DNA of 60,000 nt, from positions 30,444,001 to 30,504,000 of the forward strand of contig CM119371.1 in the NCBI GenBank assembly GCA_051294905.1, in the 5' to 3' direction. Each line of letters starts with the position of its first letter. Positions within the stretch are counted from its first letter, which is position 1. The notes beneath the pieces are model-generated. The model was not told the origin of the DNA, made no database searches, and was given only the letters and a program-made list of their open reading frames with translations. Position numbers and translations under genes: made by a program. Shown here piece after piece: positions 804 to 49,501 of this stretch. The stretch comes from Botryllus schlosseri (taxonomy: Eukaryota).

Positions 804-1627
804 CAGGGGCGGGCAACTGCTCTAGTCGGCGAGCCGGATATAGGAAAATTAAGTAATTGGTAGGCCGGATTGCTGAATCGATAACATTATTCGCCCATTT
901 ATCCACATATACAAGGAATAAATCGTGTTTAATGAATGTATTTTAATGACAGCAATGTCACTTCAAAGCCATTTCAAGCCGATAATTACGGACATAATTT
1001 GGATTTTGGATCAACATTGTCATACAGGCGCCGCCATGTCTGCTATTCTCTGATCAATTCACACACGGTGCAATCCTTGATTAAGATTTCAAGGCGTTTG
1101 ATAAACCCGGAACCCCAAATTTCCCAAGATATCAATTCATAGGGTTGAGTACATCGTAAATGCCGATAATGCAAGTTTCCTCGCTTCGACGAACTTACGC
1201 GTAAGCTCCACTATTACACGCTGTGCACACGTATATGATAACATACCGCTGGGCATATGTCCTCCTTTAAGAGGATTTGTCATCTTTTATAACTTTTTTG
1301 AAAGTGTCCTTGGAGGACGCCCAAATGTCCTCTTATTTGAGAATTTTGGTTAGATATAGGGCCAAATTAGACTGAAACACAATAAGTCAGCACTGTAGTA
1401 ACGCTCTGGCGGCTATTTCGGGAACTGGACCGGAAAGTAGACTTTTTTTATTTTTATTCAACCACCTGATGATATGAAAAACTGTATTTTTGAGAATTGA
1501 CCGAGAAAGTGACATTCAGCGGCTAAAATTTAACGTTCAAGGAAGTAGTGGGGAATCTCGGCAGAAGACGGGAAACTGTCCGATGACAGGAAAAAATCCC
1601 GCGGGCCGCATATGTTGCCCGTCCCTG
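804..1627. mobile_element. hAT-type non-autonomous DNA transposon (MITE)
   Basis: TIRs CAGGGGCGGGCAAC / GTTGCCCGTCCCTG; perfect 8-bp TSD CTTTACTC at 796-803 and 1628-1635. Confidence 0.85.
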
Positions 1628-4600
1628 CTTTACTCCGTTTACATAGTCACTTACCGTCATCCTTGTAGCGCTTCAGTGGTGGTGGGGTTTCTCGGTGTGA
1701 CATCACAATGCCTGGCGATCTCGTAGTGTAGGAGAATAGCTATATATATAAGCTGCAAATTTGATGGACAGGAAAACATAGATTAGGATTATGGTTACAA
1801 AAGGTATGCGCACTTGCGCAGTAGTGCGGTGGCAATGATGGAAGTCCAACTTCGGATAGGATCGCTACCTTGTAACTACAGACTTGTTCGCGAATTTTGA
1901 AAGTTCCCGATATGTTCAAATCAGCTACTATCCATCCACATTTCTCTTGACCCTCCCCGGTTACAAAGCGATTCCACGTTGCGATATCAAACGAAGGCTT
2001 ATGCGGCTGCGAAGCCCCGGGCTAGCTATAAAGATCGTATCAAATTACACAGTGCGTAGTAAAGTTTACAGCACAACGACAATTACCCTCCGACTACATA
2101 GACAAGGATGGATTTCTACGCCTGTGAAATGGCCCGCCGGGTAATTCTGCGTGACTTCTGACACAGTTCCACAGTTCTTAGTATCAGCTCGGCACTACAA
2201 ATACCTGAATGTTTAGTAACATGCCAATTCTCGGCGACGAGGAAACATGAAAAGAAAATTAACGTGGATATCTCAACAATGTATTCAGCCAATCATTTTA
2301 CAACTGTTCTGTCCAAACATGGGATATACCGAAACGTCTTCAATACATGACATACATTGCGTTGATGTAAGTATCCCGGAGTGTTACAATGGCTTTATGC
2401 AAGGCTTAAAAGACTAAACTATATATCTTCCACTTCAGACGGTTAGGGTAAAGGGAAAATTTTATAACCCAGTGATTATATTCTGTGTTAAGTTCGATTA
2501 TGCACGTTTTATGCGACCGCAGAGAACATAATGCCACTCTACACCATAAACGTACTTCGGTATTTTTCCAACTCCATTAAACATTGACAATGCTGTAGGT
2601 TGATTACAACTTCGCCTAACTGCCATTTACGGGGATTTGCGTAGATTTGTGCTACATGATTTGATGTTATGACACGAACAATCGAGGTTTCAAGACTTCC
2701 GCAACGAGAAAGAGGTATCAACACTATGATTATTTGTCATCGATGATAATATCACTCTTGGCGGATACTTCACTACGCCAAAAAATCGTACCTCATTTCG
2801 AACCATTAGAATTAATACTAGATTCGGATTCGATTACTAGAATCGGGGTGCTCAACCCTGCAAGGAATACTGCTCACGAGACAATTAGCTAAATTCATCG
2901 AAATGCCTGTGTATCATTGTATTGCGTTCACTCCGTAGCTAAACGTTACCGAATACTCTCAGAGCAGTCACTACATGGTGTTCAATTTGAAACTGACTTA
3001 TTGGATGATTTCGCAGCTTCTTCGTTTTGCGGACCTTTCGCAAAACCACCCGCTCCAGGCGTGAATAGTCTTCACAAATTATAGTATATGCTAAACGCCG
3101 ACTGTTTGGAGAATGGCAAATTCGCTCCACTATTTTGGTGCCTATTGATAGTGGTTGGAATACCGAGGACTATGATCTCTCTTGTATCTTAACTTTGTTC
3201 CGAAAGCATCTTCGTCTGGCGACTATATCTCATCACACCGTAAAACCCTTCTGGTAACAATGCATTCCGCAAGGGATATGGCCTGGAATTCAATATCTCA
3301 CGGCAAGAGCAAAAGTGAAATTGCAGCATACGTATATTATTACCTATTTACATTCAATACAGTCTACGCCGCGCTTGATGTTAGATACAGTGTGAATATG
3401 ACTAACCAATACATAAACTGCAGGTTCTTTTCGGCGGATAGTAGACGAGTAATCATAACATCGTTCAGTATATATACTATATAATAGTCTTGCGGACTTA
3501 TTCCGCAGCATCAATACGCTACAAATCTACCTAGGATCGCTATTCCCTAATCGTCAGCTCAGAAAAAGAAACCGTCTAGCATTGATCTGAAACGAGGCGA
3601 GACGTGTGTGGGCGACGCGAAGATATTCCTCGGCATTGAGCCGACGGGACAACAACGCACTTTAGGTAGACATTAAATAAATATTGAACAGTTGCGAGTT
3701 TACGAACACAACAAGAACGACTAGTATTGAAACGAAATGCCTTTATAGTGGCGACGCGTCCATAATGATGGTATATATTCCATTGAATTATAATACTATG
3801 GTATTGCGACGGTGGAATGGAAAATGAATTGCTTATTTATTGGTTCTACTTCATTCAATCATTCCCCTGCGTAATCATGAATAGACACATTCACAGCTGA
3901 CCTTCAGTCGGGTTCCAAAAATCTAATAATTTATCATCACTGGTCCACGGCATAAAATTATTCAAGGAAGCCCTCGATGAGAGATATGTAAACTGCACAA
4001 GCACATTGCACAGTGTACAGGACATGTAAAAGTACAATTTGTACGTCGTCCACCCATTCGTCCACCCATTTGTCATGAGCCAATGTCTAATAGAGACTAT
4101 CCATAACCCATAAACGTTTGACAAACTTATTCTAAAAGTCGGCGGAAACGCAGTTTGCCAGATGTAATCCGTATGCTGGAAGTAAATTTGCTCGTACAAC
4201 CCGTAATTAGTGACGTCCAAATACTCCATAACAATGGGTGGAATGATGTAGTGGGGAACACGCAGCAACTTATAGCGGGTGCTGATAAGTGATATTATAA
4301 CTCGCACTACATCTTGCCTAAAACGGTATATCTGACTCTGCTGCATTGTATTTTTATTATCAATTCAAAGGTCCACAAGATTGCCGTAACATGTAAAGAT
4401 AGGAATGTATCGAAAATTGTAGTAGTATTTCAATTATACATCCACCCTGGCCTGAAGATGTAAATTAGAGGCATGCACGCTGCACAGTCCACACTGCACA
4501 GCTGCTCACTAAACGAAAAGTAAAATAAGGCAACTTATATGAAGGAAAGCGGTGAAAGTATAGAGGTATGTGTCGAAGGGTAGACGACGTCAATATGTCA

Positions 4601-4895: not shown

Positions 4896-6394
4896 TCTGG
4901 TGGTGTTGACGTAGCGCATCTGGTCTGCTGCTAATGCTGTCGTGTAAATAGCGAACAGGAATCACGCACTGGTAATATAGATTTTATTCTAAAATATTTG
5001 CTGAAGCAATATGGTATTTCATACATGGATACATTCGAGATTTTCCGGATATATCACGCGCGACGCCATGGCTACAGTGTATTGGCGCGAATGTAACATC
5101 TGGACTAAAATGGGGCGAGATGTGATATGTGGGCGAAGCGAATATATTGGTATAGACATTGAGCCTCTGGATAACACTAACAACGTATACATTAATAAAT
5201 AAAAATTGATCAATCGCGAGTAAGCGTGACGAACTGAGCAAACAAGACTACTAACAAAAACGAAATATCTTGCTGTGGTGACACCTCCATAACTAAGTTA
5301 ATAAAGTATATTGAATTACTATATTACGATATGACGATGGTGGATAGGAAAAAGAATAGCTTGTTTATTGATTCTTCGATATTCAAATTCATTCATCCCG
5401 TTGTGAAATTATGAAAATACGCAAGGTCTTCAGGAGAATAACCACTGTTTTACGACTTACAATTCTTCAAGCTCTTGCTAAGAAACATTGAGTGCAGAGT
5501 GTAGCGTGCAAATGATGTAAAAGTACATATACATTGAACAATGAACACGTAGTGTATTGCACATCGTGCGGGAATATCTACTCATTCGTGATTCGCTAAT
5601 GTAATTGATATGAAACAACTACTACAAGAAATATATAGGCTACACATAGCCCAGTTGAATAATTCCAATGCGAGGAGCCCATTTCGAAATTTAATTTAAT
5701 TTTGTTCTATCAATCACAGCGTATATATTGTACATCGACATGCCCTGGTGAAATCATAGGATTGGGATTGTCTCAACCATTCATGCTGTGCTTGTTTGGT
5801 TCACTCCGGAAATATAAATGTGGTAACTGGTAAGTCTGATGTTTTACGGACTTGTATGCTCGCATGAATTTTTGTGACACAGCAGTTCAAGAATTCTGCA
5901 CGCGTCATTGCATTCCAATATTGTCATTGTCTGTGCAAACAATACGCTACGAGCGCTTGAGAACAGCTACGATTTTCGTCAGGCAATAAATGTCCCGGTA
6001 AGTCTGCAAAAATTGAACGAAGAGCTATCCAATATAGGACTTTATCACAGACGTTAGGCCATGAATGATGATGTAGTAATGCCGGAACGGATGGTACCAG
6101 CCTCACGTCATTATTTTCATACCACATAGCATTCCAACTACAGTACGATATTAATGTTGAATCGATACTATCACCATCTTCCTGGTGTGGTATACATAAA
6201 TATGATTTCGCGCTATTTCTTGATTCAGCTTGCGAATCAGGTTTGGTGAAAAATCGGGAAATATCAAGAAAGCGAAATACACCAGACAGTGAGAGATATA
6301 CTATAATGCGTTCGATAGACAGGGAAATTTGAACAGCTTCTTGGAGGTACAGAACTTCACTATACAATTAAAATGTATATTCATATTGAAATGA

Positions 6395-6438
6395 ACCCGA
6401 ATATTTTCAGCTGACACTCGTCAGGGGTAATCGTCAGC
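6395..6438 (-). ncRNA. Minimal type I hammerhead ribozyme motif (family A; G10.1-U11.1 wobble)
   Basis: Reverse complement GCUGACG-AUU-ACCC-CUGACGA-G-UGUCAGC-U-GAAA-AUAU-UC-GGGU; same strand as the GIY-YIG ORF and downstream of it. Confidence 0.7.
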
Positions 6439-6549
6439 AACTAGTAGACAATTCAAAAGAACATCGTATATCAACAATCGTATCACAAAATAAGACGTCA
6501 CCAGCATGAAATGTCGAGTACGAGAGCGTTCAATGTACAATTTTTAGAT

Positions 6550-6747
6550 CAGTGGTTCCCAACCTGGAGGTGCACCCCCCCCCCCCTTGAGGGGGCGTGA
6601 AAGCATCTAAAGGGGGCGCGAAGGAGCGGTCAACTGAAAAAAATTCGCGCACTGCGCGATTTACCTCCAATTCACGCGTGTTTCTCTCTCTCTATATATA
6701 TATCTATCATATAGGGGGCGTTTTTTAAGAAAGGTTGGGAACCACTA
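6550..6747. mobile_element. hAT MITE inserted in the Penelope-like element
   Basis: TIRs CAGTGGTTCCCAACC / GGTTGGGAACCACTA; 8-bp TSD TTTTAGAT. Confidence 0.85.
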
Positions 6748-7163
6748 TTTTAGATGATAGACGAACTCTCTTTGATGACACAGCATTGGCTGGTGTATTT
6801 TGATAAAAGTCGACTCCAAGGCACACAAATGAAAGTGTGAACGACCCTTTCCGAGTATGCGAAATCTGTCGTCTCGTTAATTTTTCGCACAGGCGGGATT
6901 ATCCAACAAGAGTTTGGCAATTGCAGAATTTATGGCCTTCAATTGTTCTGCATCAATCTTGAGCGGATGAGTTAAGGGTGAGCTTTCCACCGAGCGTGTT
7001 CTAATGAATCTGGGGACATGCTGATTTAGGCGTTCCTGCAAGCGCTTTGACGTTCTTCCCACGTAGCCACAATCACACTGTCACTTGAAATTCGTAAACT
7101 ACAATTCGTCATATTTTGTGATACGATTGTTGATATACGATGTTCTTTTTAATTCTACTACTT

Positions 7164-7207
7164 GTTGACGATTACCCCTGACGAGTGTCAGCCGAAAATA
7201 TCCGGGT
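7164..7207 (+). ncRNA. Hammerhead motif, family A, probably inactive copy
   Basis: ACCC-CUGACGA-G-UGUCAGC-C-GAAA-AUAU-CC-GGGU; U16.1 is replaced by C relative to the other copies. Confidence 0.55.
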
Positions 7208-8531
7208 TCATTTCAATATGATTAATGATTATACTATTCAACGGGTAAATTTCTATAGAGTCTGGTTGCTAAACCCGAAACTAATTCGCCCTTCGCGTCG
7301 CAATCCGATACGACATATCCGCACCCAGCGATGTAATGCAATATCTGTGTATAAAGCACGATCGGGCTGCAATCTAGGTACATCGAATGTTAACGTCACG
7401 GACCATTGGATTTATAGGCTACCCAACGCTGCAACAGCGGCGAACGACCCGACCATAACATCGGCGTCCCCGGCATACGAGGTAAACCGATTCCGTGAAG
7501 GCTTTCACTATAAATATAATGTACGTTATATACAGTTACAATACTAGCGCTCTGCGCTAGCATATAGCCTAGTTTCCAGCTGGTATGTAGTGATAAGTTG
7601 GACAATTATATACAGAGGTCGCCTTGTGGCATTTGGAGGCATGTTAGACGTTGCACGCTGGCTTTCTTTGCGATTTCTAGCGCCATACAATCTCAAACAC
7701 AGTAACACACTGCCAAACGGCTAATCCCTCATTGCTCCGTGTAGTTCTTATTATAGCTCGAAATGGGCTTCCTTAGCAGAAAAAACCTGACGACACACTG
7801 TATAATATCGCTGCTTCTGATTTCTAAAAAGCGTAGACTGGCTTTGATACTCTGCATATCAACACCGACTGAGAATTGAAATCTTCTGCCTTCGAGCGTT
7901 ACCTATAGAACGCCAGCGCGCTCATAATTTCGTATAATTACATTCTTCGTACCAAGATGTTACCGTATGCACGCTAGTCGCAGTGAAACCAACTGCCCTG
8001 TGAACTGTAGCGCCTTCGCTTCACGGACGCTGGTTATCGTGAAGACTTCCGCAATGCCACGCGCATTTATCACGAATAGCTGAGATGTGGACATTGGTAA
8101 ATGAACTCTATTCTACAACGTCGGTTCTTGGCTGGTATCTCATTTGACACATCGGTAACGGTTATAACATAACAGCGTCGTTTCACCCTGGTGCGGTATA
8201 TAAGCCCGACACGATGCTTAAATGGACAGGACACTGCTATCTAAATATGGTGTGTTCTTGAATTCAAGATGAGAGTGAAAAAGGAATTTTGGCAGCAGCC
8301 ATTTTCTTCAGAGTGGCACCGTACCGTATTCGAACTGTAGCGAAAAGAATTTTACGAAAAATACGATTCCGGTCAATCTCTGTGATATCGAGGAGACGCT
8401 TTTAACCTTTTGCGAAAGTTTTGGCACGCATTTCATCAATGTTATATTAATCTTTTTCAATGCGGTCAGGGATAGAATGCGAGAGAGAGAATTTCTTGCT
8501 TCGTCAACCGAAACAAACAACAAACACTTGG

Positions 8532-8750
8532 GAGTATGTAAAAAATCCCCCCAAACGACAACACACACAGGGAGAGAAAGAAAGAGATTTTATACAGACT
8601 ACAGAGTATGTCTCTGTAGTAACTACAGATACTCTGTAGTCTGTATAAAATCTCTTTCTTTCTCTCCCTGTGTGTGTTGTCGTTTGGGGGGATTTTTTAC
8701 ATACTCAGACATACTACAGTGTAGTATGTCTGAGTATGTCAAAAATCCCC
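8532..8750. repeat. Compound foldback (nested inverted repeats)
   Basis: 78-bp arms 8532-8609 / 8629-8706, plus an overlapping second palindrome 8688-8750. Confidence 0.9.
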
Positions 8751-8761
8751 ACAAATGAAAT

Positions 8762-10024
8762 CACGTGACATACTAGTTGCGATCAAAACAAGGGATTGGA
8801 TGCATAAGCACTACTATCTGCAAGGCACAAGCGAAGGCAAAAAAGTGTACAAAAATATGCAAACCAAGTGACACATATGAAAGCAAATGCCAAAAAAGCA
8901 TACTTCCAGAAAAGATTCGAAGAGTGCTCCAAAGATCCCAAGAATACATGGAAAACCACTGGAGAAATTATCAACCTAACTAAAGGTAATGCTCCCAAGA
9001 GTGCTGTTGACATCGAGCTACTCGAGTATGGCAGCATGATCAAAGACCAGCTTGCAGTAGCAGAAAAGTTCAATCAATATTTTGCAACATTGGTCCGGAT
9101 CTTGCAGCTTCAATACCAAACTCCTCCAATGACTTTCTCTCGTACTTGAGTCCTGGCCCGCAGAAATCCATTTTTCATGAGCCGACAAGTAAAGGAGAAG
9201 TTGCGATCATATTATCTGAAATGAAAAGTAACAAAGCAGTAGGACCCGATCTCATCCCAACTCACTTTCTGAAGCTAGTTTTTTAATATTATTGGCGATG
9301 TTATATGAATTTTCTTTAATGAGTCGATACGTCTAGTCATTTTCCCAGGTGCACTGAAAACTGCCAGAGTAATGCCAGTGTTTAAGAAAGGCTGTAAAAA
9401 GCTAATTTCTAACTACCGACCAATATCTGTTTTGCCAAATCTTGCCACGTTTTTTGAGAAACTGATTGACTGCCGACTCAAGAATTTTTTTGAATTGAAT
9501 GCAGTATAGTCTCCAACTCAGCATGGATTCAGATCAAACCACAACACCAACCATGCAATACTATCAATTGTAACGGACTATATTACAAAACCGTCAAGCA
9601 AAAAAAAAGTGGCTTCAGCATTTTTATCGACCTCCGCAAATCTTTCGACACAGTTAACCACAGAATCTTAAGATACAAGCTAGAACACTGTGGAATCAGG
9701 GGTATTGCAGCAACTCTACTTGAAAGCTACCTGGAAAATCGCAAACAATTTGTTAAACTGGGGACATTAAGAACGACTACCAGAGATAAAACTTGTGGAG
9801 TGCCACAAGGCTCAGTCCTTGGACCGACTTTTTTTCTCATTTATATTAACGATATTGTTAATGCATCTTTTTTCCGCACACCCCTATTTGCTGATGATAC
9901 TCTCCTCTTCGTAACCTCCAACACTGTCGATGATTTGCATGCATCTGTGAATAGGGAACTCCCAAAAGCGTCGAGATGGCTGCAAGCAAACGAACTAAGT
10001 TTGAATGCAGATAAGACTGAGAGC
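8762..10024 (+). mobile_element. Decayed L2/CR1-clade LINE ORF2 (reverse transcriptase) fragment
   Basis: Broken frames carry KAVGPD.IP, NYRPISVL, QHGFR, DLRKSFDTVNH, GVPQGSVLGP, LFADDT; multiple stops and frameshifts. Confidence 0.9.
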
Positions 10025-10025
10025 A

Positions 10026-10372
10026 TATAGTGTCCTATATGGTGTCGACACAGGCAAATTTCACGCCTCAATGAAATTGTATCACGTCACAATTTTCATT
10101 TGGCTACAGGCAATTTGACGGTCATTTTTGACCGGCTTTCCGAGTATTAAATTTGGTAAAACGGGTATCAATCGAAATCTGACACTGCACTGATTACGAA
10201 AATATAAATTTTATTCCGATCGTGGCCCTGGAACTCCCACAATAAGCCTCGAATTTTTTATTGTTATGGAGATTGGCATTGGGACGCAACAATGCAGAAC
10301 AATGCTGTCTGGCTCTTTTTCTTTTGAGCTACTCTATCGTTTCGCCAAACAGCATTGTTGCGTCCCAATGCC
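10026..10372. mobile_element. Truncated copy of the foldback element at 55865-56450
   Basis: Starts ATAGTGTCCTATATGGTGTCGACAC and matches one arm plus the spacer; lies where the LINE fragment ends. Confidence 0.85.
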
Positions 10373-11225
10373 CAAGTAATATATTCTAGTGCGGAGCGGA
10401 TCGACAAATTCTCTGGTCCGGCTCCGATCCGGTTTGCCAATTCTCTGGTCCGGATCCGGCCGTATCAGGAAAAAGTACTGATCCGGATCCGATCCGGCTC
10501 TGGCCTAAAATGAGAAAGTCCTGCCGGAAATCCGGCCCAACACGGTACGCTGGTTCCGTGAATTTAAAATATGGCTCGTTTTTTTCGCTCTGGCTTGGCG
10601 GTTACTTGCGTGTTGTTGGTTGGTAGTTAATTAGTTACAAACGTCATGTTTATCCATAAAGATTCTGGCCTTATCAAAAAAGTAGTGACCCGGCAAGAAT
10701 TTCAACAAATAATGCATACATACATACTAAGATAACTCTCGTGCCACCGAAAATTATACCCCTCGCGACCCATACATTAAAGGACCCTGCGAGAGAGAGA
10801 GAGAGTCTTTATTTTCATCCAACCAAAGTACATAACACATAGCAGTGATGGCGGTACAGAAAATATGCATGCACAGTATTCGGTATCAGATAGGAATGAT
10901 CGATAAGACCGTGAAAGTCATCTAGTCTGATCACACCACCTTCAAACAGGTACGCTTGACTCTAAACAGTCTTGGCTGTAAAAAATGTTAATCTGTATTA
11001 CAGTGTTGCAAATGTGCGTCTGTAATGGTGGCATTTTTACATACTACCTTCATTCCTCGTGCCATTCAAACCGTTATTACGGAATTATGATGACTGTCGA
11101 AAAGAAGAATGCGGAAAGTCAATTTTACGTCATTTTCCCGCGTGTCGTAGGCTCAGACGCGCTGATTCAGTGCCTGCCTCAACACCTGCTTGCGAACTGG
11201 ACTTTCGATTATGTTATAATAATAG

Positions 11226-11605
11226 AGTATTGCTTTCACAACTACATTCATTGCAGTAAAGAATTTATTAACTCGAAGACTTTTCGTGTGCCCCTTATCG
11301 AGAGTTAACGGCACGATAATAAGCATACAGAGAGAGATTCAAACGAAAACCAAATTGGCAGAGCATGGCGTAATAATACAATAATAAAAAATTAACGCTA
11401 GGCAAAGTCAGCTGTTCCGGTAGTCATAACAAGAGACGAGAGAGTATCAAATTATACAATAATGCACGGAAGACAACACACAGACAAATAGCGGTATATA
11501 TTAATAAATAACGGTATATATTAATAAAGTTAATGAATTCTTTACTACAATGAATGTAGTTGTGAAAGCAATACTCAAGTTTAGTACCGCCAACCATATT
11601 TTCAA
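11226..11605 (-). mobile_element. Second Penelope-type terminal-repeat insertion (family B)
   Basis: 49-bp inverted repeats 11225-11273 / 11529-11577; 13-bp direct repeat GTTATAATAATAG at 11213 and 11606; hammerhead-like motif next to the left arm; no coding remnant seen. Confidence 0.55.
11268..11315 (-). ncRNA. Variant minimal hammerhead motif (family B; U3-A8, C4)
   Basis: Reverse complement CGUGCCG-UUAACUC-UCGAUAA-G-GGGCACA-C-GAAA-AGUCU-UC-GAGUUAA; 7-bp stem I. Confidence 0.6.
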
Positions 11606-12328
11606 GTTATAATAATAGTGCGAAAATATGAATTCACTGCGGCTGGTGCGAGATAAAGTTACTGTAAAAGTCACGAATAGTGGTGTGACTTATGATAAAC
11701 AAGTTATCACAAATGCGTCGCAACGACCAAATAGGACCCATGAATTTCGGCAGAAAAAGTAACATATATGACGATATTCATGTACACTCAGGTGACTCAG
11801 CCGTATCACTTTTATCATTCGTACTATAATTATCTCCATCCGCACAAGCTCGTACCATCCAACAGGTTGAAAGGCACTGCTCTGTAGTTTTGCAAATGCA
11901 CCTTTAGTTAGATGTCATAGCTTTTGAATATCGGCTGACCATATCGGTTTTATCGGTGAAGGTGCCAGTTATCGAGTCATCGGTTTCGGCTCAAACATCC
12001 AATACAGGTCTGGCTCTACTTACGATACCACGACGGTTCAGCTACTGTAAGTTACAGTAAGTATAGGCCTATAAGGTATCGGAGCTCAACGGACAACGTA
12101 ACAACGGCGACCGAAGACGGGTATGGTACCGGCAATGGGGGCGAGCTCGAAGGGGGGCACAAAATTACTTCGTGAATTACCATAAACTATGGTGTAAATT
12201 TTGATCGCGCTAGGCGCGATTTAATGTTGTTGAATCTCTTCATTATTGGGTTCCCTTCCCCAAAGAAAAAAATATAGGCATGATTTATAGAAATTGGCAT
12301 TTCGGCGTGCCATTACCGCGCCACGACG

Positions 12329-17117: not shown

Positions 17118-19096
17118 TTATTCCATCATTCCTTTTTCTTTGAGCTCTTTCGGGCTTCTGCTTTCCATCTCAGCGTTGATGTAGACCAAGATTTCTGCGG
17201 CTTTGGGTTCGTGATTTTGTTTTCGCCTTCTTTTACTTCTTCGAATGCATGATCTCAAAAGCCAGATTGGTTTTATTGCTTTACCTTCATGCTTTTTCGC
17301 ATTCCTTCCGTCCCATGTCGCTTGCTTCAGTGTCGATGTGATCGTGAGGTAGACGAGCAGCTCCTCTAGTTGCATCGGTTCTCTCTGATCCATGTTGATT
17401 ATTTCCTGTAGCCCTGGTGGTTTTGCTGTCCGCCCCGTGATGCTATTTCCTGCGTCTAAAAACAGGAGTATAATCCGCCTTTCCGTCTTACATTTTATGA
17501 AGAGATGTTCGGGCGATTCGATCTGTGTTTCACATAGTGGGGAGTCTCTTGTTCCTGAAGCCATTGTGGCTTGCAACTTTTCGTTGGTTGGCAGCAGCCT
17601 GTTCGCAATATCCCAATTGACTTTCCTTTGCTCGAGGGTGAGATAGAAGTTGCTCATGCTCATATTTGACCAGTTCGGTCCTTGTATTTCCTTCACTTAG
17701 CTCAGATTGTTTCTGACGATAGCCATATAGTATCTGTCGCGTTGTTTGATTTTGGTGTCCTGTTTGCTGAAGCCCATGTTCTCCATCGTCTTTGCGATTT
17801 CCCTCCAATGTTTCAGCGACTGTACTGTATGTGGTATGGTGTTATCAATCGTACTTTTTCCATACCTTTTTAGGGTGAGGGCTAATTGATTTTCCAGCCT
17901 TCTCTCCCATTCGGTTTCCGGCTTTTTGTCCTCTTTCTAGAGGTATTTTAGGGCTGACTTGATGAACGCGAGATCAGTCATTGTTGGAATGTCTACCAGA
18001 TCCAATCTTCCCGTCTCTCTGCTCTGTATGATATAGCCTACTCGAATTCGATTTTGCCGTCGAGGCCCATCACGATTGCCGCCACTTCGATCTTCAGTTT
18101 CTTTTTCGTCTGGCTCGCTATTTTGTTTTTCGCGGCTGTATAAGTAAAAGCGGGAGGATATTAGTCCTGCCTATACTGACCTTTTCATGTCTTTTTAGGC
18201 GGAATGTTCTTAGCTCATTGAGAATGTCGACAGTTTTGTTTATCGCTTCGATCCACGGTTCCGTCTCGGCCTTCTCGTCATGTGCTATGATGTTGCCCAG
18301 AGCCGTAAGCTTGTTCGTCCAATTTAGTGTGATGGTAGGATGCCTTCGCTTTTTTCTTACGAATGTTATCCCCTTCGTTTTTTCTTGATTCGTCTGGAGG
18401 ACGCTCGCTTTGCCGAATTCTGTTACTATGCCGATTGCCTCTTTGCTGTCGTTCTCTGTTGCGAGCGTGATCGTGATGTCGTCGGCGCATGACGGCGTGG
18501 TGATTCTCTCCTTCATGCCAGCGAGTTCCTGTTATGGAACTTTTGAAGAAGCGATTCGGTGACTATTGTGAATAAATACATCGAAATGGGGTCACCGTGT
18601 TTTATGCCCTCTCGTATTTTTATAGTTTTCCCAATTGCGCCGCCGATGGATATATTCGCTTCTCCGTTCTTGTAAATTGCCTCGTAGAATCGTCTGAAGT
18701 TGTTAGCCAGGCCAGCTTCTTCTAGTGATCTGTGCTTCCTCTTCCGTTATTGGCTTATCTATGTCCTCTTGTTGCTTTTGCGAGAGCCGTCTTGTTTGCG
18801 CTCTGAAATAAGGAATCAGCTATATCGGATTCTGTATTTTTCTTACTATATAGCTATTCGTAATAATCATCAACTGTCTCTCGGATCTTGTTCTGGTCTG
18901 TGGTGGTGCTCGCGGCTGGATTGATTGCGCTGATGAATGCCACATCTCTTCGCTTCTTCGTGCTTTCGCAGAGTGTGTACGGGAATTTACTAAGCATCTC
19001 TTCCGCTCTGGCCTTCGATTCCATTTGGATGAGTTTCAGGATGTTGTCCTCCTTGTTTTCCCGAATATTCTTTTTTACCCTTCTGTAATCTGGCAA
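17118..19096 (-). mobile_element. Decayed L1/Tx1-clade LINE ORF2 fragment
   Basis: IREGIKHGDPIS, CADDIT, NQEKT and C-terminal LPTN..PLC....ESPEHLFIKC zinc-binding remnant; frameshifts and internal deletion. Confidence 0.85.
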
Positions 19097-19229
19097 TGGA
19101 GTATTTGTAGTGTACGCATGACACGGTCTCTCTCTGATTTTAGCTCTTTTCAGTCTTCTTCTCGTTGCTTGCCTGGCGACTTGCTTGAACTACTGAAACA
19201 CGTCACAAGGTCGTGCGTTCACATTGTTG

Positions 19230-19356
19230 TCAATTGTGCTCGACACATGAAAACGGATCAGCAAGTTTGATATGCTGTCCCTCGATTAACTACGAGCTTG
19301 AGGTTCGATCTTTGCTCGAATGATTGCGTTGCGCAACTTCACCTGCGCACCACAGC
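19230..19356. repeat. 127-bp direct repeat, copy 2
   Basis: Closely matches 16908-17034. Confidence 0.9.
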
Positions 19357-19742
19357 CCATTCTGCATCAGTATACGTGTAAACGTAAAGGTAGGAAGAAG
19401 TGAAGTTCTAAATATAGATTGTACCCGATCCTATTTAATAGTGTTTACGGTGAGTAAGCTAATACATACAATTACATGAGCATTTGATTCATTCGAATGA
19501 TAAAGTGTAGCCGTGATCGATTACCAATCGCGACGACACGCGGAATATCTGATCGATTAGCCAATTTGTATAGGCTACTACTGTCGATCCATAATGCTGG
19601 TGTTAAAAGCAATGAGGAGACATCTGACATAATATGCAGCAATGTTGATGAGCGGATTATAGACACTTACATGAACTTTGACATGAGCCAATCAGGTTGC
19701 AGCATCATGTCAAAAACAGAAAGGGGGTTGCAGGGTTTGAAA

Positions 19743-19813
19743 ATGAAGATTTTTCAGCTTCGGTGAATAGTAATAACCGTTATTACTATTCACCGAAGCT
19801 GAAAAATCTTCAT
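19743..19813. repeat. Perfect palindrome, 35-bp arms, 1-nt centre
   Basis: ATGAAGATTTTTCAGCTTCGGTGAATAGTAATAAC-C-reverse complement. Confidence 0.95.
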
Positions 19814-19945
19814 GCTAGTATGTAGGCCTATTTGCAGTGCTCGAAGCTAGAATAAACACGAATGGTGGCAAGTAGCCTACGCATCAGCAAGATGTGTCCA
19901 ATTGCATGGATTTTGACAACTTTTCGAATGAAGAAACTATTATTG

Positions 19946-21946: not shown

Positions 21947-23175
21947 TATTATTGTAGGCTATTTTCCTTATTCGTATACCACACGATTGTTGTACACGGC
22001 TAAAGAGTGTCCGGAATTTGAGCCGCGAAAACATGGTAATCCTGGCCGTGTGACAAGTCGGTAGCTACGGAATAAAAGTGAAGAAAAATAGTCTGGTGTA
22101 AATGACCATAGTATTCGACAAAACACCATGAATAGTCCACCACAAACAACATCAATAACAAGATGACAATGTAGCCCGCGGCCACAGTCCACTACTTGCT
22201 TCTTTACTAGCTACGTCAAATTATGGTGACTCTATAGAGCAGTGGTTCTCAACCTTTTTTCCTCCGGCGCCCCCTTTCAAAAATTATCGTGCTCTAGCGC
22301 ACAGATAGACCTCTAATTTTTGACGAGTCTGCGCACACTCACCAACTCACAGCGCAGACCCTTGGACAACAGTGTGTAACGACTTAAAAAAAGGTCATCA
22401 CTTCGTATTTTTTGCGCAACTTCGATTTTCTGTGCGCAGATATCATACCAGCGCTGCGTGGGGAAGAGGAGCCCGCAGATGAACCTCCGACGGGAATCGA
22501 TCGGGTACACCAGCTTAGTAGGCGTTTATCGCTATTTCCAAAATATGATAACCCTATGTTATGTGCCTCGAGAGGATAACAATAATGCGAGCGCTGATTA
22601 TAAATATCGATTTGAGGTAAGAACATAAACACAATATAGGCCTCTGCGAAGTGCGAATACAGACGATACGGTTCAATTCACATGTCACGTTTGACGTATG
22701 TCAATAACAGGAGCCGGTGAGCTAGCAGCAGCAGCATATGGCGAATGTTGAGTGTATAATGAACGCAGATTTGATAATCATGGTGATGATAATGGCATAT
22801 ATGATATATCTGTAATCAAATCTGAATTTATAATATAATTTTCTTTGTCTGCTGCTCGGCTATTGTGATTATTAGTGACCGTAATCAGTAAGTTAATCCG
22901 TTAATCGTTGGGTTATATTTTCATGAATCTCGATAAGTCACACACAATGTAGCCTACAAAGGCTACAATGCGATGTAATGAACAGATAGGAAGAGTTATT
23001 CTGTTCCGTGTTCACTTGCGCCAGGGCCAGTATACGGAGCGCACTGCTCAGGATACCTGCCATAATGTTGATGTAACTTATATATTTGCGTCGCTATGTT
23101 GAAGTATTCACCCTCGTATAGCGTTACCTTATTCTTCTTCATCTTTAATTAAATAATATATTCATATTGAAATGA

Positions 23176-23219
23176 ACCCGAATATTTTCGGCTGACACTC
23201 GTCAGGGGTAATCGTCAGC
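23176..23219 (-). ncRNA. Minimal type I hammerhead ribozyme motif (family A, intact)
   Basis: Exact reverse complement of 23242-23285. Confidence 0.8.
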
Positions 23220-23241
23220 AACTAGTAGAGAATTGCTAGTT

Positions 23242-23285
23242 GCTGACGATTACCCCTGACGAGTGTCAGCCGAAAATATTCGGGT
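23242..23285 (+). ncRNA. Minimal type I hammerhead ribozyme motif (family A, intact); predicted cleavage after C23281
   Basis: Stem I ACCC/GGGU, core CUGACGA, G10.1-C11.1 closing a 7-nt loop, GAAA, palindromic stem III AAUAUU, UUC triplet. Confidence 0.8.
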
Positions 23286-23594
23286 TCATTTCAATATGAA
23301 TATATTATTTTATTGTATATTGAAGTTCTTCATCTTTGTGCATCTACAAATGGTTTGCCATACTGGATATAAACAATATAAGCCCATTGTCATATAGTGT
23401 GCTCTTCCTGGCTGTAGCTTCCGCTGTCGTCATGACTTTTTTACGATGTGATGTAGAAGTTGTGGCATTCCACGTTTGTAAGTCAGTAAGTGACATTGGA
23501 AGAGAGGAAGGCCCTCTTTGCTTTGACATTGTGAGGTATGATGCATGAATATAGTGCATTTGGTTCGCTGCCTCGCAATTTGTGAGGGGTCTCA

Positions 23595-24081: not shown

Positions 24082-24368
24082 CAGTATAGTCCAAGTCCAA
24101 CCCAATTAAAATAGAGATTTTTTGAATCAGTACAGTATCACTTTTCAATACAACTTATTTTGAAAATTTTTTATTTGTCACTTGGACCTATCATTGTCCC
24201 TTCCTGGCCTTCTAACAATAGCAGTTCATAGAGTTGTTATACTATTAGACAGAAATTTATCCTGTAACATGGCCATTTTACCTCCCCCCCCAAAATCAAT
24301 ACAACACAACTTCAAATTTCATCTATTTTTCAACAGCAATATTAGTAATTGGATGCAATACAAGCATC

Positions 24369-26135
24369 ATGGTGGTTCAAGTACTCGATGCAGCTGTGCG
24401 GAAAGCCACAAAGTCGAATCGCAACCATTCGTGGATACTGGTGGGATGTTGGCAACTTGAAAACCTGTTGATCACGGATGTAGTCGATCATTCATTGATT
24501 TCGGAGATATGCAACGACGCTGATTCGGCGCTGGAGTTTTTAGAGACATTTTTTCCTGAAGGATTTGAACTAGTCGGCACTTTCAACTCGTGCAAAGAAG
24601 ACGAAACCGTCATCAACTTCCTTAAATCCAAGACAAACGGTTATGTGGTCACGGATTTTGATGGTGATTGTGATTCTGCTATAAAATGTCTCACAATTGA
24701 TGGCAGTGAAGAGACAAATGTGTCTGTGGATGTTATATCAAGCCAGGCGGCTTTGAAGTGTATTGCGGAACATTGCCTGATTTTTTGTGCAAACGAGCAC
24801 TTTTTTTCAACAATCGACACCAGCGATTTGAACGCAATCGCAGACACTTCGTTGGACCAACTGAAACTGCAGAAAAACAAGCTTGAATCTGATAATATAG
24901 GGTTACATTTTCCATCGACAGATGGCTTTGTCTTTGGCGAAAAACACAACGACATCAGCATTCTAAAATTTTTGCAAGTCAACGAAAAGGAAAGAACAAA
25001 AGACTTGCAGAAAACATCGTACTATTCCATGAGGCAATTTTTCGGTGCTGACGTCCGCGTGGACGTCCGTACGTTTGAAAACGCGACAAAGAAGGTCGCT
25101 AAATGCACTGCTCCGTTTGTGAAGCATTCGGAAAATGCGTCGTACCGCGAGGTCGCTTGTGACATACTCGGAATAGCGTTTGTGAATAAGAACGCGACAG
25201 TTTTTCAGACAAAAATTGCGATTCGAAGATCGATTATGCGTAACATCGCGAATACATGCGGTATGTTGCGGTATCAATTGCGATCTCTTGAAAATAACGA
25301 TTCTGTGACACTGAACGATATGAAATCTTCCATATTTTGCCTTCCTGATGGCGTGTGTGTGCTGAATTTTTGCCAGCCTACAATTCTGACTGATGAGAGA
25401 TATAAATCATTTCGTGAGCAACTGCACAAGCTCTTTTTAATCAACGCCGATCGTCCTACATTTACGATACTAAACGCTGTAGGATTACAGGACAAATCAC
25501 AAGTACTATTGAACACCCATATCGGATTAAAGCCCGCAGTTATGGATGGTGGGGAAGTGTCTACAGTGTACGGCATCTACGGGTATCACCATTACATGCA
25601 AGATCGTATCGATGATAACGGATGGGGTTGCGCTTACCGTTCATGCCAGACTATTATATCGTGGTTTCGTTACCAAGGATATACAGACGTGCCCGTACCA
25701 TCACACCGGGAGATTCAAGCAGCCTTAGTTGCTGTTGGCGACAAAGAGAAAAGATTTATCGGGTCAAGGCAGTGGATAGGCTCGATAGAAATCAACAATG
25801 TCTTAAGCCATTTGCTGGAAGTTACATCGAAAATAATGTTCGTCAGCCGTGGCTCTGAATTGGCGTCGAAAGGTCGCGAACTAGCTTTGCATTTTAAAAG
25901 TCAAGGCACCCCGGTTATGATCGGAGGCGGCGTGCTGGCGCATACGATTTTAGGCGTGTGTTTTTCGGAAGTCACGGGCGATACTAAGTTTTTGATTTTG
26001 GACCCTCATTATACTGGCGATGAGGACTTGAAAATCATACAGTCGAAGGGTTGGTGTGGTTGGAAGGGTAGTAAATTTTGGGACCAGAACGCTTATTATA
26101 ACTTATGCCTCCCTCAAAGACCTGTCGCCTACTAA
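24369..26135 (+). CDS. UFSP2: UFM1-specific cysteine protease, long form (peptidase C78), 588 aa, single coding exon
   Basis: [21 protein letters not shown] (catalytic Cys), [34 protein letters not shown] (Asp/His), GWCGWK, FW....YNLCLPQRP. Confidence 0.96.
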
Positions 26136-47690: not shown

Positions 47691-47924
47691 GTAAGAATCA
47701 TCATGCAACCCAATGGTTCTCAACAAGGGTCCGTGAAGTTTATAAATTTGAAAATAAGTAATAACATAATTTGTAATTTTTTTTTAATTCGGGAAAGCAT
47801 GAGACAGTTTTCTTTCATAATTGCTACAACTTCAGGTCTCGCATCATTAGAATAGTCATGTGATATAAAAAATCCTTGGGTTACAGAACATCATAACACA
47901 TTTGAATAAAATATTCATATTTAT

Positions 47925-47968
47925 TCCCGAAGCTTTTCGGCAGACCCTCGTCAGGGGATATCGTCAGC
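47925..47968 (-). ncRNA. Minimal hammerhead motif, diverged family A, in an isolated Penelope-type terminal repeat (~47905-48032)
   Basis: Reverse complement GCUGACG-AUA-UCCC-CUGACGA-G-GGUCUGC-C-GAAA-AGCU-UC-GGGA; compensatory changes in stems I and III. Confidence 0.8.
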
Positions 47969-49501
47969 AATATTGCGAGAATTCGAATAACTATGTTCAA
48001 CAACAATATATATCGCTAATTATGACGTCACACAGAAAATATACAAAGTTAGAAAAACGAGAGAACTGAAACGTTGGCAAGGAGATAGCGAAGCAAAACA
48101 AGTCAGGCATTACATAATATCATTGGCTACGATGGACTCTCACGTATGTTTCTCCAATAGTGATTGCAGTGGTTATCATGAAGGCTGAACAGCGAACACC
48201 ATGATTTGAGTACTCGGATTCGCGTCGAGTATTGTTTTCGATGACTCTTGTTAAGTAAAATGGTAAATTGTTGAGTACGAGTAAGATACACCCCTTTCGA
48301 CAAACGAGCCATTTTCCCATCATTAAAGCCTCGAAACTTCGATTGGCTTCATCATAACAACCATAAATGTAGCATGATGCTAGTCATGTTCGCGGAGACA
48401 AGACACGTTTGAGTAGTGATCAACTCTACGCATTAGCACATGGTGTGTGTCATAGTTTTTAAAATATTTATTTCACCAGTTGTAACTGACATTATTTTCT
48501 ATATCATCGTATGAAAGGTGCATATTTGAACTTCGGGATTCGCTCTTACTATATGCATGACGTATGACGTATGACGTCGTAATGAGTGGTACTCGAATGC
48601 TCGAAGCTAATGGTGCTTGATTTTGCCCAGCCTTAGTAATCACATATAAAGCAAAATCGAAAGTATTGAAGTATATTATTGACAGGTTTATGCTTTAAGC
48701 ACAATGTGCTCTAAACATGATGTGGCCTCAAATTATAGTTGAGGGCAATGAAAACATTATGGCAGCAGTCATAGGCGCCTGCTTTTATATTTGCATGCGG
48801 TGGCGGCAGGCGCGTAGCCAGGGGGTGTCGAAACACCCTCCATTGAAACGCAAAACCCCGTCCTTTTGAAATGGCCATTCTGACGCTAATATTCAGTTGC
48901 AATCCAACAAGTCGTGTTATCAGTTTTACGCGGGGCCGCGACCAATTAGTGGGATTCGTCTAGGCACGCATATCGCATCGCACAATGCTACGCCACACGA
49001 TCTCCCGCTGAGATGATTGCGATATTAGGTCATTGATTGCCGCGCACTAGGCATTCGTCGCTGGACTGAGAGCACTGAGCAGTAACACATCGCGACAATT
49101 CTGGAATACGAAAGACAGACAAGAATTATGATTACGCGCGCGGCCAATCAGTAATCATCCCTTACCGCCAACACAATGGGTTTTTACTTAGTATTGAGTA
49201 GCTCGCATCGCGACAATTGGTTGCTGGTTATGGTACCCTGAGTTGAATCCCATGACAGAGTTCTTTTTCAACAAAATCTAAACCAGATAAGAGTTAATGT
49301 CGCTTTTACGAGTATTGAACGCTGCCTTCGGAGCCTCACTATCAAGAGCTCCTCGCGTTTGTGGTCTCCCCATAGTTTAATCCCCCAGTATAATCCACAC
49401 TTCAATTTTGTAACACAATAATCTGCTTTTTCTGTCGTAAAGTGTTAACTACTGCAAATATCAGCACGTATATATCATTGAAGCGGAATGTGGTCTTTTA
49501 G

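Follow-up and report, generated by a model that had tools for sequence, protein, structure and literature searches.

Why Penelope-like elements (PLEs) keep hammerhead ribozymes is the question on which this locus bears. Hammerheads have a strict consensus core, C3 U4 G5 A6 N7 G8 A9 in the standard numbering used throughout, in which U4 takes part in the U-turn. Within the window, i.e., the whole stretch of 60,000 nucleotides of DNA analysed here, a motif on the minus strand at 11315-11268 has the layout of a hammerhead and departs from this consensus, its core having U3, C4 and A8. If the C4 form is dead or slow, the latest burst of the element that carries it would be in vivo evidence that retrotransposition can do without cleavage, and if it is active the hammerhead core that is tolerated would be wider than search descriptors assume. 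The clade around this element combines a 3-8 pair that occurs in three states with a recent replacement of U4 by C in a currently spreading subfamily, all on one scaffold kept by long purifying selection, and as such it is a natural experiment. We asked what the motif is, which element carries it, how old the changes in its core are and whether it is likely to cleave.

The motif in the window

The motif is composed of the following parts, where family A is the PLE family to which the insertion is assigned below.

11315-11268, minus strand: hammerhead motif overall, type I
11310..11315, minus strand: 5' arm of the pseudoknot, pairing with loop II (5 bp here, 6 bp in most family A copies)
11308-11302, minus strand: 5' arm of stem I, pairing 7/7 with 11274-11268
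11301-11295, minus strand: core U3 C4 G5 A6 U7 A8 A9, with C4 at 11300
11294 and 11286, minus strand: 1-bp stem II, G10.1-C11.1, closing a 7-nt loop
11292-11287, minus strand: 3' arm of the pseudoknot, inside loop II
11285-11282, minus strand: GAAA (G12 A13 A14 A15.1)
11282-11276, minus strand: stem III palindrome AAG-U-CUU, which can pair copy to copy
11275/11274, minus strand: predicted cleavage site, C17/G1.1, by hammerhead numbering
11268..11274, minus strand: 3' arm of stem I

A preliminary description of the locus had given the positions of stem I, the core, the loop, GAAA, the palindrome and the UUC site, and all of these were confirmed on the minus strand. They form a three-way junction in type I order, with a stem I of 7 bp, a stem II of 1 bp and an intermolecular palindrome as stem III, a layout that is kept across families. 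G5, A6, A9, G12, A13, A14, A15.1-U16.1, H17 and G10.1-C11.1 are all present, and the motif is a hammerhead variant by descent, not a member of the consensus.

A relaxed descriptor, which allowed C3-G8 or U3-A8 and any base at position 4 and required at least 7 pairs in stem I and a stem II region of at most 12 nt, gave a single match in the window itself and no match across 100 mononucleotide shuffles. The 33-nt core has 85 exact occurrences in the genome searched, a 495-Mb eukaryotic assembly of 219 contigs, and its reversed control has 0. It had been anticipated that consensus motif searches would miss the variant, and Rfam does miss it: no hammerhead family was returned in a search of the whole window up to E = 1. 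The canonical-core element at 23147-23325 was missed in the same search, so the failure at 11268-11315 does not come from the core alone. As a monomer, the hammerhead is not the minimum-energy fold (z -0.62; +2.8 versus -6.6 kcal/mol, without the pseudoknot). The absence of an Rfam match and the ordinary folding energy, together with the inverted arms and target site duplication (TSD) that flank the motif, would suit a motif that resembles a hammerhead by chance, or a MITE-like insertion bounded by terminal inverted repeats, rather than a PLE hammerhead.

The insertion and its target site

The insertion is arranged as follows.

11213..11225: left copy of the TSD, 13 bp; base 11225 also fits the element
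11226..11505, minus strand: main body, the entire pseudo-LTR (pLTR) of PLE family A, which runs from the stop codon through the hammerhead and finishes at the short tail end (~ORF +27)
11226..11251, minus strand: first codons of the RT + GIY-YIG ORF, with the ATG at 11251, ended at the short tail end
11503-11501, minus strand: ORF stop codon
11506..11525, minus strand: 20-bp tandem duplication at the inversion junction
11528..11605, plus strand: inverted 5'-truncated second copy, to the long tail end (~ORF +58), with the first 19 aa of the ORF
11606..11618: right copy of the TSD, 13 bp

By its sequence, 11226-11605 is a 5'-truncated copy, on the minus strand, of a young PLE, and this copy, with one core and no ORF, is probably inert. 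The 13-bp TSD and the 49-nt inverted arms reported earlier are present, the arms being 96% identical (11225-11273 and 11528-11576). The 49-bp inverted repeat is therefore real, but its right arm actually extends over 78 nt (11528-11605) and is the inverted 3' tail of the element. This arm begins 1 base past the cut site and is without the hammerhead core, and the architecture that it was said to share with 23147-23325 is shared only loosely, since there both arms hold a hammerhead.

Among 44 distinct ends in the fetched loci, the tail ends were bimodal, with 22 at +19..+34 and 18 at +54..+59, while one was at +87 and three continued into the ORF. All nine inverted insertions carry one short and one long tail, and six of the nine have exact duplications of 12-15 bp. 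An inverted adjacent copy, 5' truncation and a tail of 30-40 bp at one end are described as a pattern of EN+ PLEs (PMC8557442), and the two tail ends would fit two internal RT start sites, as described in PMC11167929. Given that the arms are the element's own tail, they are not the terminal inverted repeat of a MITE, and on these grounds, with one short and one long end in every inverted insertion, the MITE reading was rejected. A look-alike is further contradicted by the shuffled windows, by an intact RT + GIY-YIG ORF whose start codon lies shortly after the motif and by the covariation described below; we regard a chance or MITE-like origin as refuted, with next to no probability left to it.

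The element and its protein

When 11226-11605 was used as a query against the genome, 39 other copies matched positions 101-380 of the query at 94-96% (from the best 40 of 1646 candidates), and in the flanks of the copies the element body extends upstream into the ORF. The search for linked RT and GIY-YIG ORFs, proposed as a check of the preliminary description, bore it out: full copies encode an intact 846-aa RT + GIY-YIG protein, and two copies have intact ORFs, of 846 and 847 aa, behind the pLTR. Locus L031 consists of a partial copy, a pLTR, the 846-aa ORF and a pLTR, i.e., a partial tandem with a single ORF that lies between hammerhead-bearing repeats. The start codon of family A is 24 nt past the predicted cut site.

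The family A protein has an RT domain (PF00078, RVT_1; 38.5 bits, cut-off 29.6), with DKG at 269 and YVDD at 517, and, C-terminally, a GIY-YIG-like domain (PF01541, E 0.0008) at 20.1 bits, which is below the cut-off of 22.6. CCHH-type residues are found at C725 and C727 and in two QH motifs at 745 and 788. A CX2-5CxxC finger had no match in the RT-EN linker, and the absence of this finger is given as a Penelope/Poseidon criterion (PMC8557442). Under the criteria of that study we class family A as Penelope/Poseidon-type, our own tree holding only its own clade. None of the solved structures searched matched the protein.

Two further observations were made at L031. On the minus strand, an open frame with an upstream ATG (832-3447) crosses the whole hammerhead into the ORF, with 25 extra codons, and is absent from sister families. 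At 2141-2803, 24 reads of one RNA run skip 661 nt with GT..AG ends antisense to the element, and this skip is a cryptic intron in a host transcript that crosses the family A copy.

Relatives and the second hammerhead family of the window

A protein search (7873 candidates, of which 54 were scored and 30 fetched) gave families B and C, both 64% identical to A, and family D, 58% identical, and in all of them a hammerhead lies directly before the start codon. Their cores are UUGAAAA in B, UUGAUAA in C and UUGAGAA or UUGAAAA in D, all of them U3-U4-A8. Among 69 metagenome loci with related ORFs there was one further family, with U3.G8 or U3-A8; its members L091, L093, L095, L100, L103, L116, L128 and L134 have the U3.G8 wobble, with one row of U3-A8, and in them the start codon and the 3' arm of stem I overlap.

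The hammerhead at 23147-23325, here family E, has the core C3-U4-G8. It had been described as sequence-unrelated to the motif at 11268-11315, a claim that does not survive: the two align column for column and share a pseudoknot, and identity between their GIY-YIG domains is 48%. The latter comparison was made with a second family E copy in the window, whose GIY-YIG remnant is 57% identical to D.

6325-7224: family E inverted insertion
6389-6441, minus strand: canonical-core hammerhead
6748-7092, minus strand: GIY-YIG remnant with stops
7161-7224, plus strand: inverted hammerhead-bearing arm

In a GIY-YIG tree of 13 rows, E groups with D at 100/97, on a long branch, and is known from two short loci and the remnants in the window. 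A sequence-only model of D, E and the metagenome family ranked the motif at 11258-11310 next after its own type, with a weak E of 0.03. The column-wise alignment, the shared pseudoknot and the kinship of the GIY-YIG domains argue that the window's two hammerheads are homologous, and we take that at 23147 to be a relative with a canonical core. The two nevertheless belong to distinct Penelope-like families, as had been proposed. Families B-E share with A the layout, the pseudoknot, the ORF start and a homologous protein, and differ from it in protein sequence (58-64% identity for B-D, 48% over the E remnant) and in position 4: families A-D have U3-A8 and E has C3-G8, while C4 is present only in A.

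Several further members of this group were observed. The 23147-23325 element is a near-perfect palindrome with 79-nt arms, a 12-bp TSD and two family E hammerheads head to head, and as a query it gave 43 genomic matches from the best 40 of 93 candidates. At 47903-47970 (minus strand) there is another hammerhead of the pseudoknot type, with a canonical core and a start codon after it, which is D/E-related and has a damaged loop II. Full-length elements of the D type are found in tandem and inverted arrays, and their intact ORFs are nearly identical (G000:C11:890699-905424; C12:24286738-24322374; C6:11273591-11284772).

Pseudoknot, covariation and constraint

In all families, loop II has its complement in six bases lying 5' of stem I. 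The predicted pseudoknot, which would prop the 1-bp stem II, is a feature that was overlooked in the first reading of the locus. Over eight tested pairs in a 13-row alignment, 97% of cells are paired, and 96% of the pseudoknot cells, compared with 30-58% in slid controls. Three of the six pseudoknot pairs and the 3-8 pair vary on both sides across the 13 rows, which represent only about five independent families and include the window copy as one row. The covariation score was reached by none of 500 shuffles, a test that is inflated by related rows. The preliminary description had treated U3-A8 as a compensatory change, and position 3-8 is indeed paired in all 13 rows (U-A in 10, U.G in 2 and C-G in 1). 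G10.1-C11.1 is G-C in 13/13, and the stem III palindrome is kept in four different sequences across families. Loss of the core and stems in other copies, which would have counted against a ribozyme, was not seen: the fold is intact in C4 copies, and stems and core are conserved across families.

Between A and B the hammerhead is identical at 43/48 positions, compared with 118/188 in the upstream pLTR (shuffled, about 56%) and 46/201 at four-fold sites, and C and D behave like B in this comparison. By this difference between the hammerhead and the four-fold sites, the U3-A8 hammerhead is under long purifying selection. Furthermore, U3-A8 is old, being common to four families (A-D) with saturated synonymous sites.

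C4 and U4 within family A

A further check concerned whether C4 is fixed in the family, and it is not: U4 is present in about 31 of the 149 near-exact copies, and these make up an older subfamily. The C4 33-mer, with its 85 exact occurrences, reaches 128 when one change is allowed and 230 when three are (100 of them listed), and the U4 form has 10 exact occurrences and 116 with up to one change. By subtraction, with at most one other change, there are 85 + 33 copies with C4 and 10 + 21 with U4, i.e., C4 in about 118 of 149, where a rare A4 or G4 copy would count in both totals. The U4 copies are much more diverged, their ratio of one-change to exact copies being 2.1 compared with 0.39 for C4. 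They also share linked changes in the pLTR, with T at -31 in 11/17 compared with 0/39, G at -19 in 10/19 compared with 0/39 and A at -27 in 10/18 compared with 2/39; these figures cover 20 of the 31 U4 copies, and the comparison set is best-scored, with overlapping loci and three family B rows.

Two other accounts of position 4 were rejected. Decay of C4 at a CpG is not the main cause of U4, as a search that tolerated transitions at both CpG sites gave 101 matches, 12 of them U4 and none C4-A5, and as linked changes are present elsewhere. Coding constraint through the open frame across the motif does not fix C4: the change falls on a third codon position, where it is synonymous, and the spacing to the start codon differs in sister families. 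C4 is a derived change that marks the youngest subfamily, which includes both intact ORF copies. At the level of sequence, these comparisons demonstrate descent from PLE hammerheads, a conserved fold, long constraint on U3-A8 and a recent origin of C4.

The replacement of U4 by C4 in the latest burst, both intact ORF copies included, would also be expected if selection had favoured C4 as a companion to U3-A8, or to the pseudoknotted 1-bp stem II, restoring or tuning activity and aiding spread. In a bacterial hammerhead, a 1-bp stem II with a 6-bp pseudoknot supports cleavage at over 1.2 per min, and tertiary contacts have been proposed to offset core changes (PMC3088659). However, U3-A8 can do without C4, given that it has persisted alongside U4 over saturating distances in families B, C and D and in the older A copies, and a single origin of C4 is indistinguishable from hitchhiking. 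We consider selection for C4 quite improbable.

Comparison with known hammerheads

U3-A8 is not novel, having already been printed for PLEs of Schistosoma (PMC4209133) and for prokaryotic hammerheads (PMC3088659). About 1,300 S. mansoni matches with U3-A8 are given for PLE hammerheads (Cervera and De la Pena 2014, PMC4209133), and of the 56 rows in Fig. S3 of that paper two have U3-A8 (S. mansoni 3 and 4), one has U3.G8 (Saccoglossus 1) and none has C4 or a 1-bp stem II. These minimal hammerheads of metazoan PLEs share with the present motif the type I order, the pLTR site before the ORF, G10.1-C11.1, the palindromic stem III and the U3-A8 core. They have, however, a helix II of at least 3 bp and are drawn there with no pseudoknot, whereas a 1-bp stem II and a pseudoknot are found here.

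The hammerheads of Perreault et al. 2011 (PMC3088659) likewise have a 1-bp stem II supported by a 6-bp pseudoknot that involves the stem I side, and they include natural U3-A8 and natural U4C, the last in a viroid and by citation. In that paper, the example with a 1-bp stem II that was tested comes from a metagenome, belongs to type II, has a consensus core and a stem III of its own and does not lie in a retroelement, and U3-A8 and C4 are listed there as separate variants, not together, whereas here they are combined. PAc, which is the Anolis carolinensis Poseidon element (Frangieh et al. 2024, PMC11167929), shares the RT with a C-terminal GIY-YIG domain and the hammerhead at the pLTR-ORF junction, and also has two internal RT start sites leading to two tail ends. 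It differs in having C3-G8 and an ORF that starts inside the ribozyme, rather than past the cut site as in family A.

U3-A8, U4C, a 1-bp stem II with a pseudoknot and the inverted tail have each been published already, and only their combination in a PLE was not found. U4C was reportedly treated by Ambros and Flores 1998, 3-8 exchanges are said to have been studied by Przybilski and Hammann 2007, and Lunse et al. 2017 reportedly deal with PLE hammerhead variants. The combined U3-C4-A8 core was not encountered in the literature covered, nor was any PLE whose 1-bp stem II is pseudoknotted, and Lunse et al. 2017, the most relevant work, is outside this coverage and could already show C4 or short-stem-II variants.

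Evidence on cleavage

The cut site is crossed by RNA reads, and nowhere do read ends accumulate in four runs with the same species label (358 reads, 3-6% of each run), where depth over the site is about 12-34 and at least half of the reads over the core have family B letters, so that these reads are silent on cleavage. The inverted arm of the window, starting one base past the cut site, prompted the idea that 5' truncations might pile up at this site, and this was rejected: using exact 25-nt matches only, five copies depart there (one exactly at the site) compared with five in a control window before the start codon.

Our preferred reading, which we hold to be somewhat probable, is that the motif is the pLTR hammerhead of a young Penelope/Poseidon-type element, weakened, cleaving slowly and tolerated by retrotransposition. 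In tandem or paired element transcripts, two motifs would pair via the stem III palindrome while the pseudoknot would hold stems I and II parallel, and the RNA would then be cut after C17, a site 24 nt ahead of the start codon; the cut would probably be slow and aided by the element protein. Minimal hammerheads of PLEs are described as cutting slowly, as dimers (PMC4209133), and the PAc hammerhead as cutting only with its protein (PMC11167929). C4 would weaken the U-turn further but be tolerated because insertion would be primed internally, at two tail sites downstream of the ribozyme, using uncut RNA, and it may have reached high copy number by riding on a successful master copy.

Against slow cleavage are the lack of a read-end pile-up in these shallow RNA data and the truncations near the cut site, which are no more frequent than in the control. 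Both are also expected if C4 killed the ribozyme and the youngest subfamily spreads with a dead hammerhead, its fold being undecayed or kept for another job, which may be RNA dimerisation, protein binding or translation start. The core has two simultaneous departures from the CUGA turn, and in deep mutagenesis of a type III hammerhead single and double mutants of the CUGA region had low activity, the C-G swap excepted (PMC9901934), which suggests that U3-C4-A8 may be dead rather than slow, the more so as PLE hammerheads are slow already. Moreover, catalytic mutants of PAc leave insertion in vitro unaffected (PMC11167929), Naiad PLEs proliferate without hammerheads (PMC8557442), and one core change beside several linked pLTR changes fits neutral fixation. 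However, C4 copies retain the rest of the core as well as both stems, the palindrome and the pseudoknot, and a natural U4C, while it lowers activity, kept a viroid infectious (PMC3088659, by citation there). The read and truncation results were likewise negative for PAc, in which no RNA-seq reads end at the cut site though it cleaves (PMC11167929). A dead ribozyme is in our view unlikely, if by no means far-fetched, and we retain a weakened, slowly cleaving hammerhead as the explanation.

A bolder proposal is a spreading PLE subfamily with a working triple-change hammerhead, U3-C4-A8, rescued by its pseudoknotted 1-bp stem II. One fixed scaffold would then hold a natural core series, from C-G, U.G and U-A to the change from U4 to C4, and C4 may be favoured on U3-A8. 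We think this doubtful; if true, current descriptors would be blind to an entire layer of such ribozymes.

Other features of the window

Long perfect hairpins at 8557-8678 and 19739-19816 have sub-threshold Rfam miRNA matches and probably represent insertions that are MITE-like or palindromic. Pieces of non-LTR retrotransposon ORFs, judged by eye, lie at 9494-10030 and 17118-19270. At 24249-26135 on the plus strand there is a single long ORF with a C-terminal Peptidase C78 domain, which is UfSP2-like.
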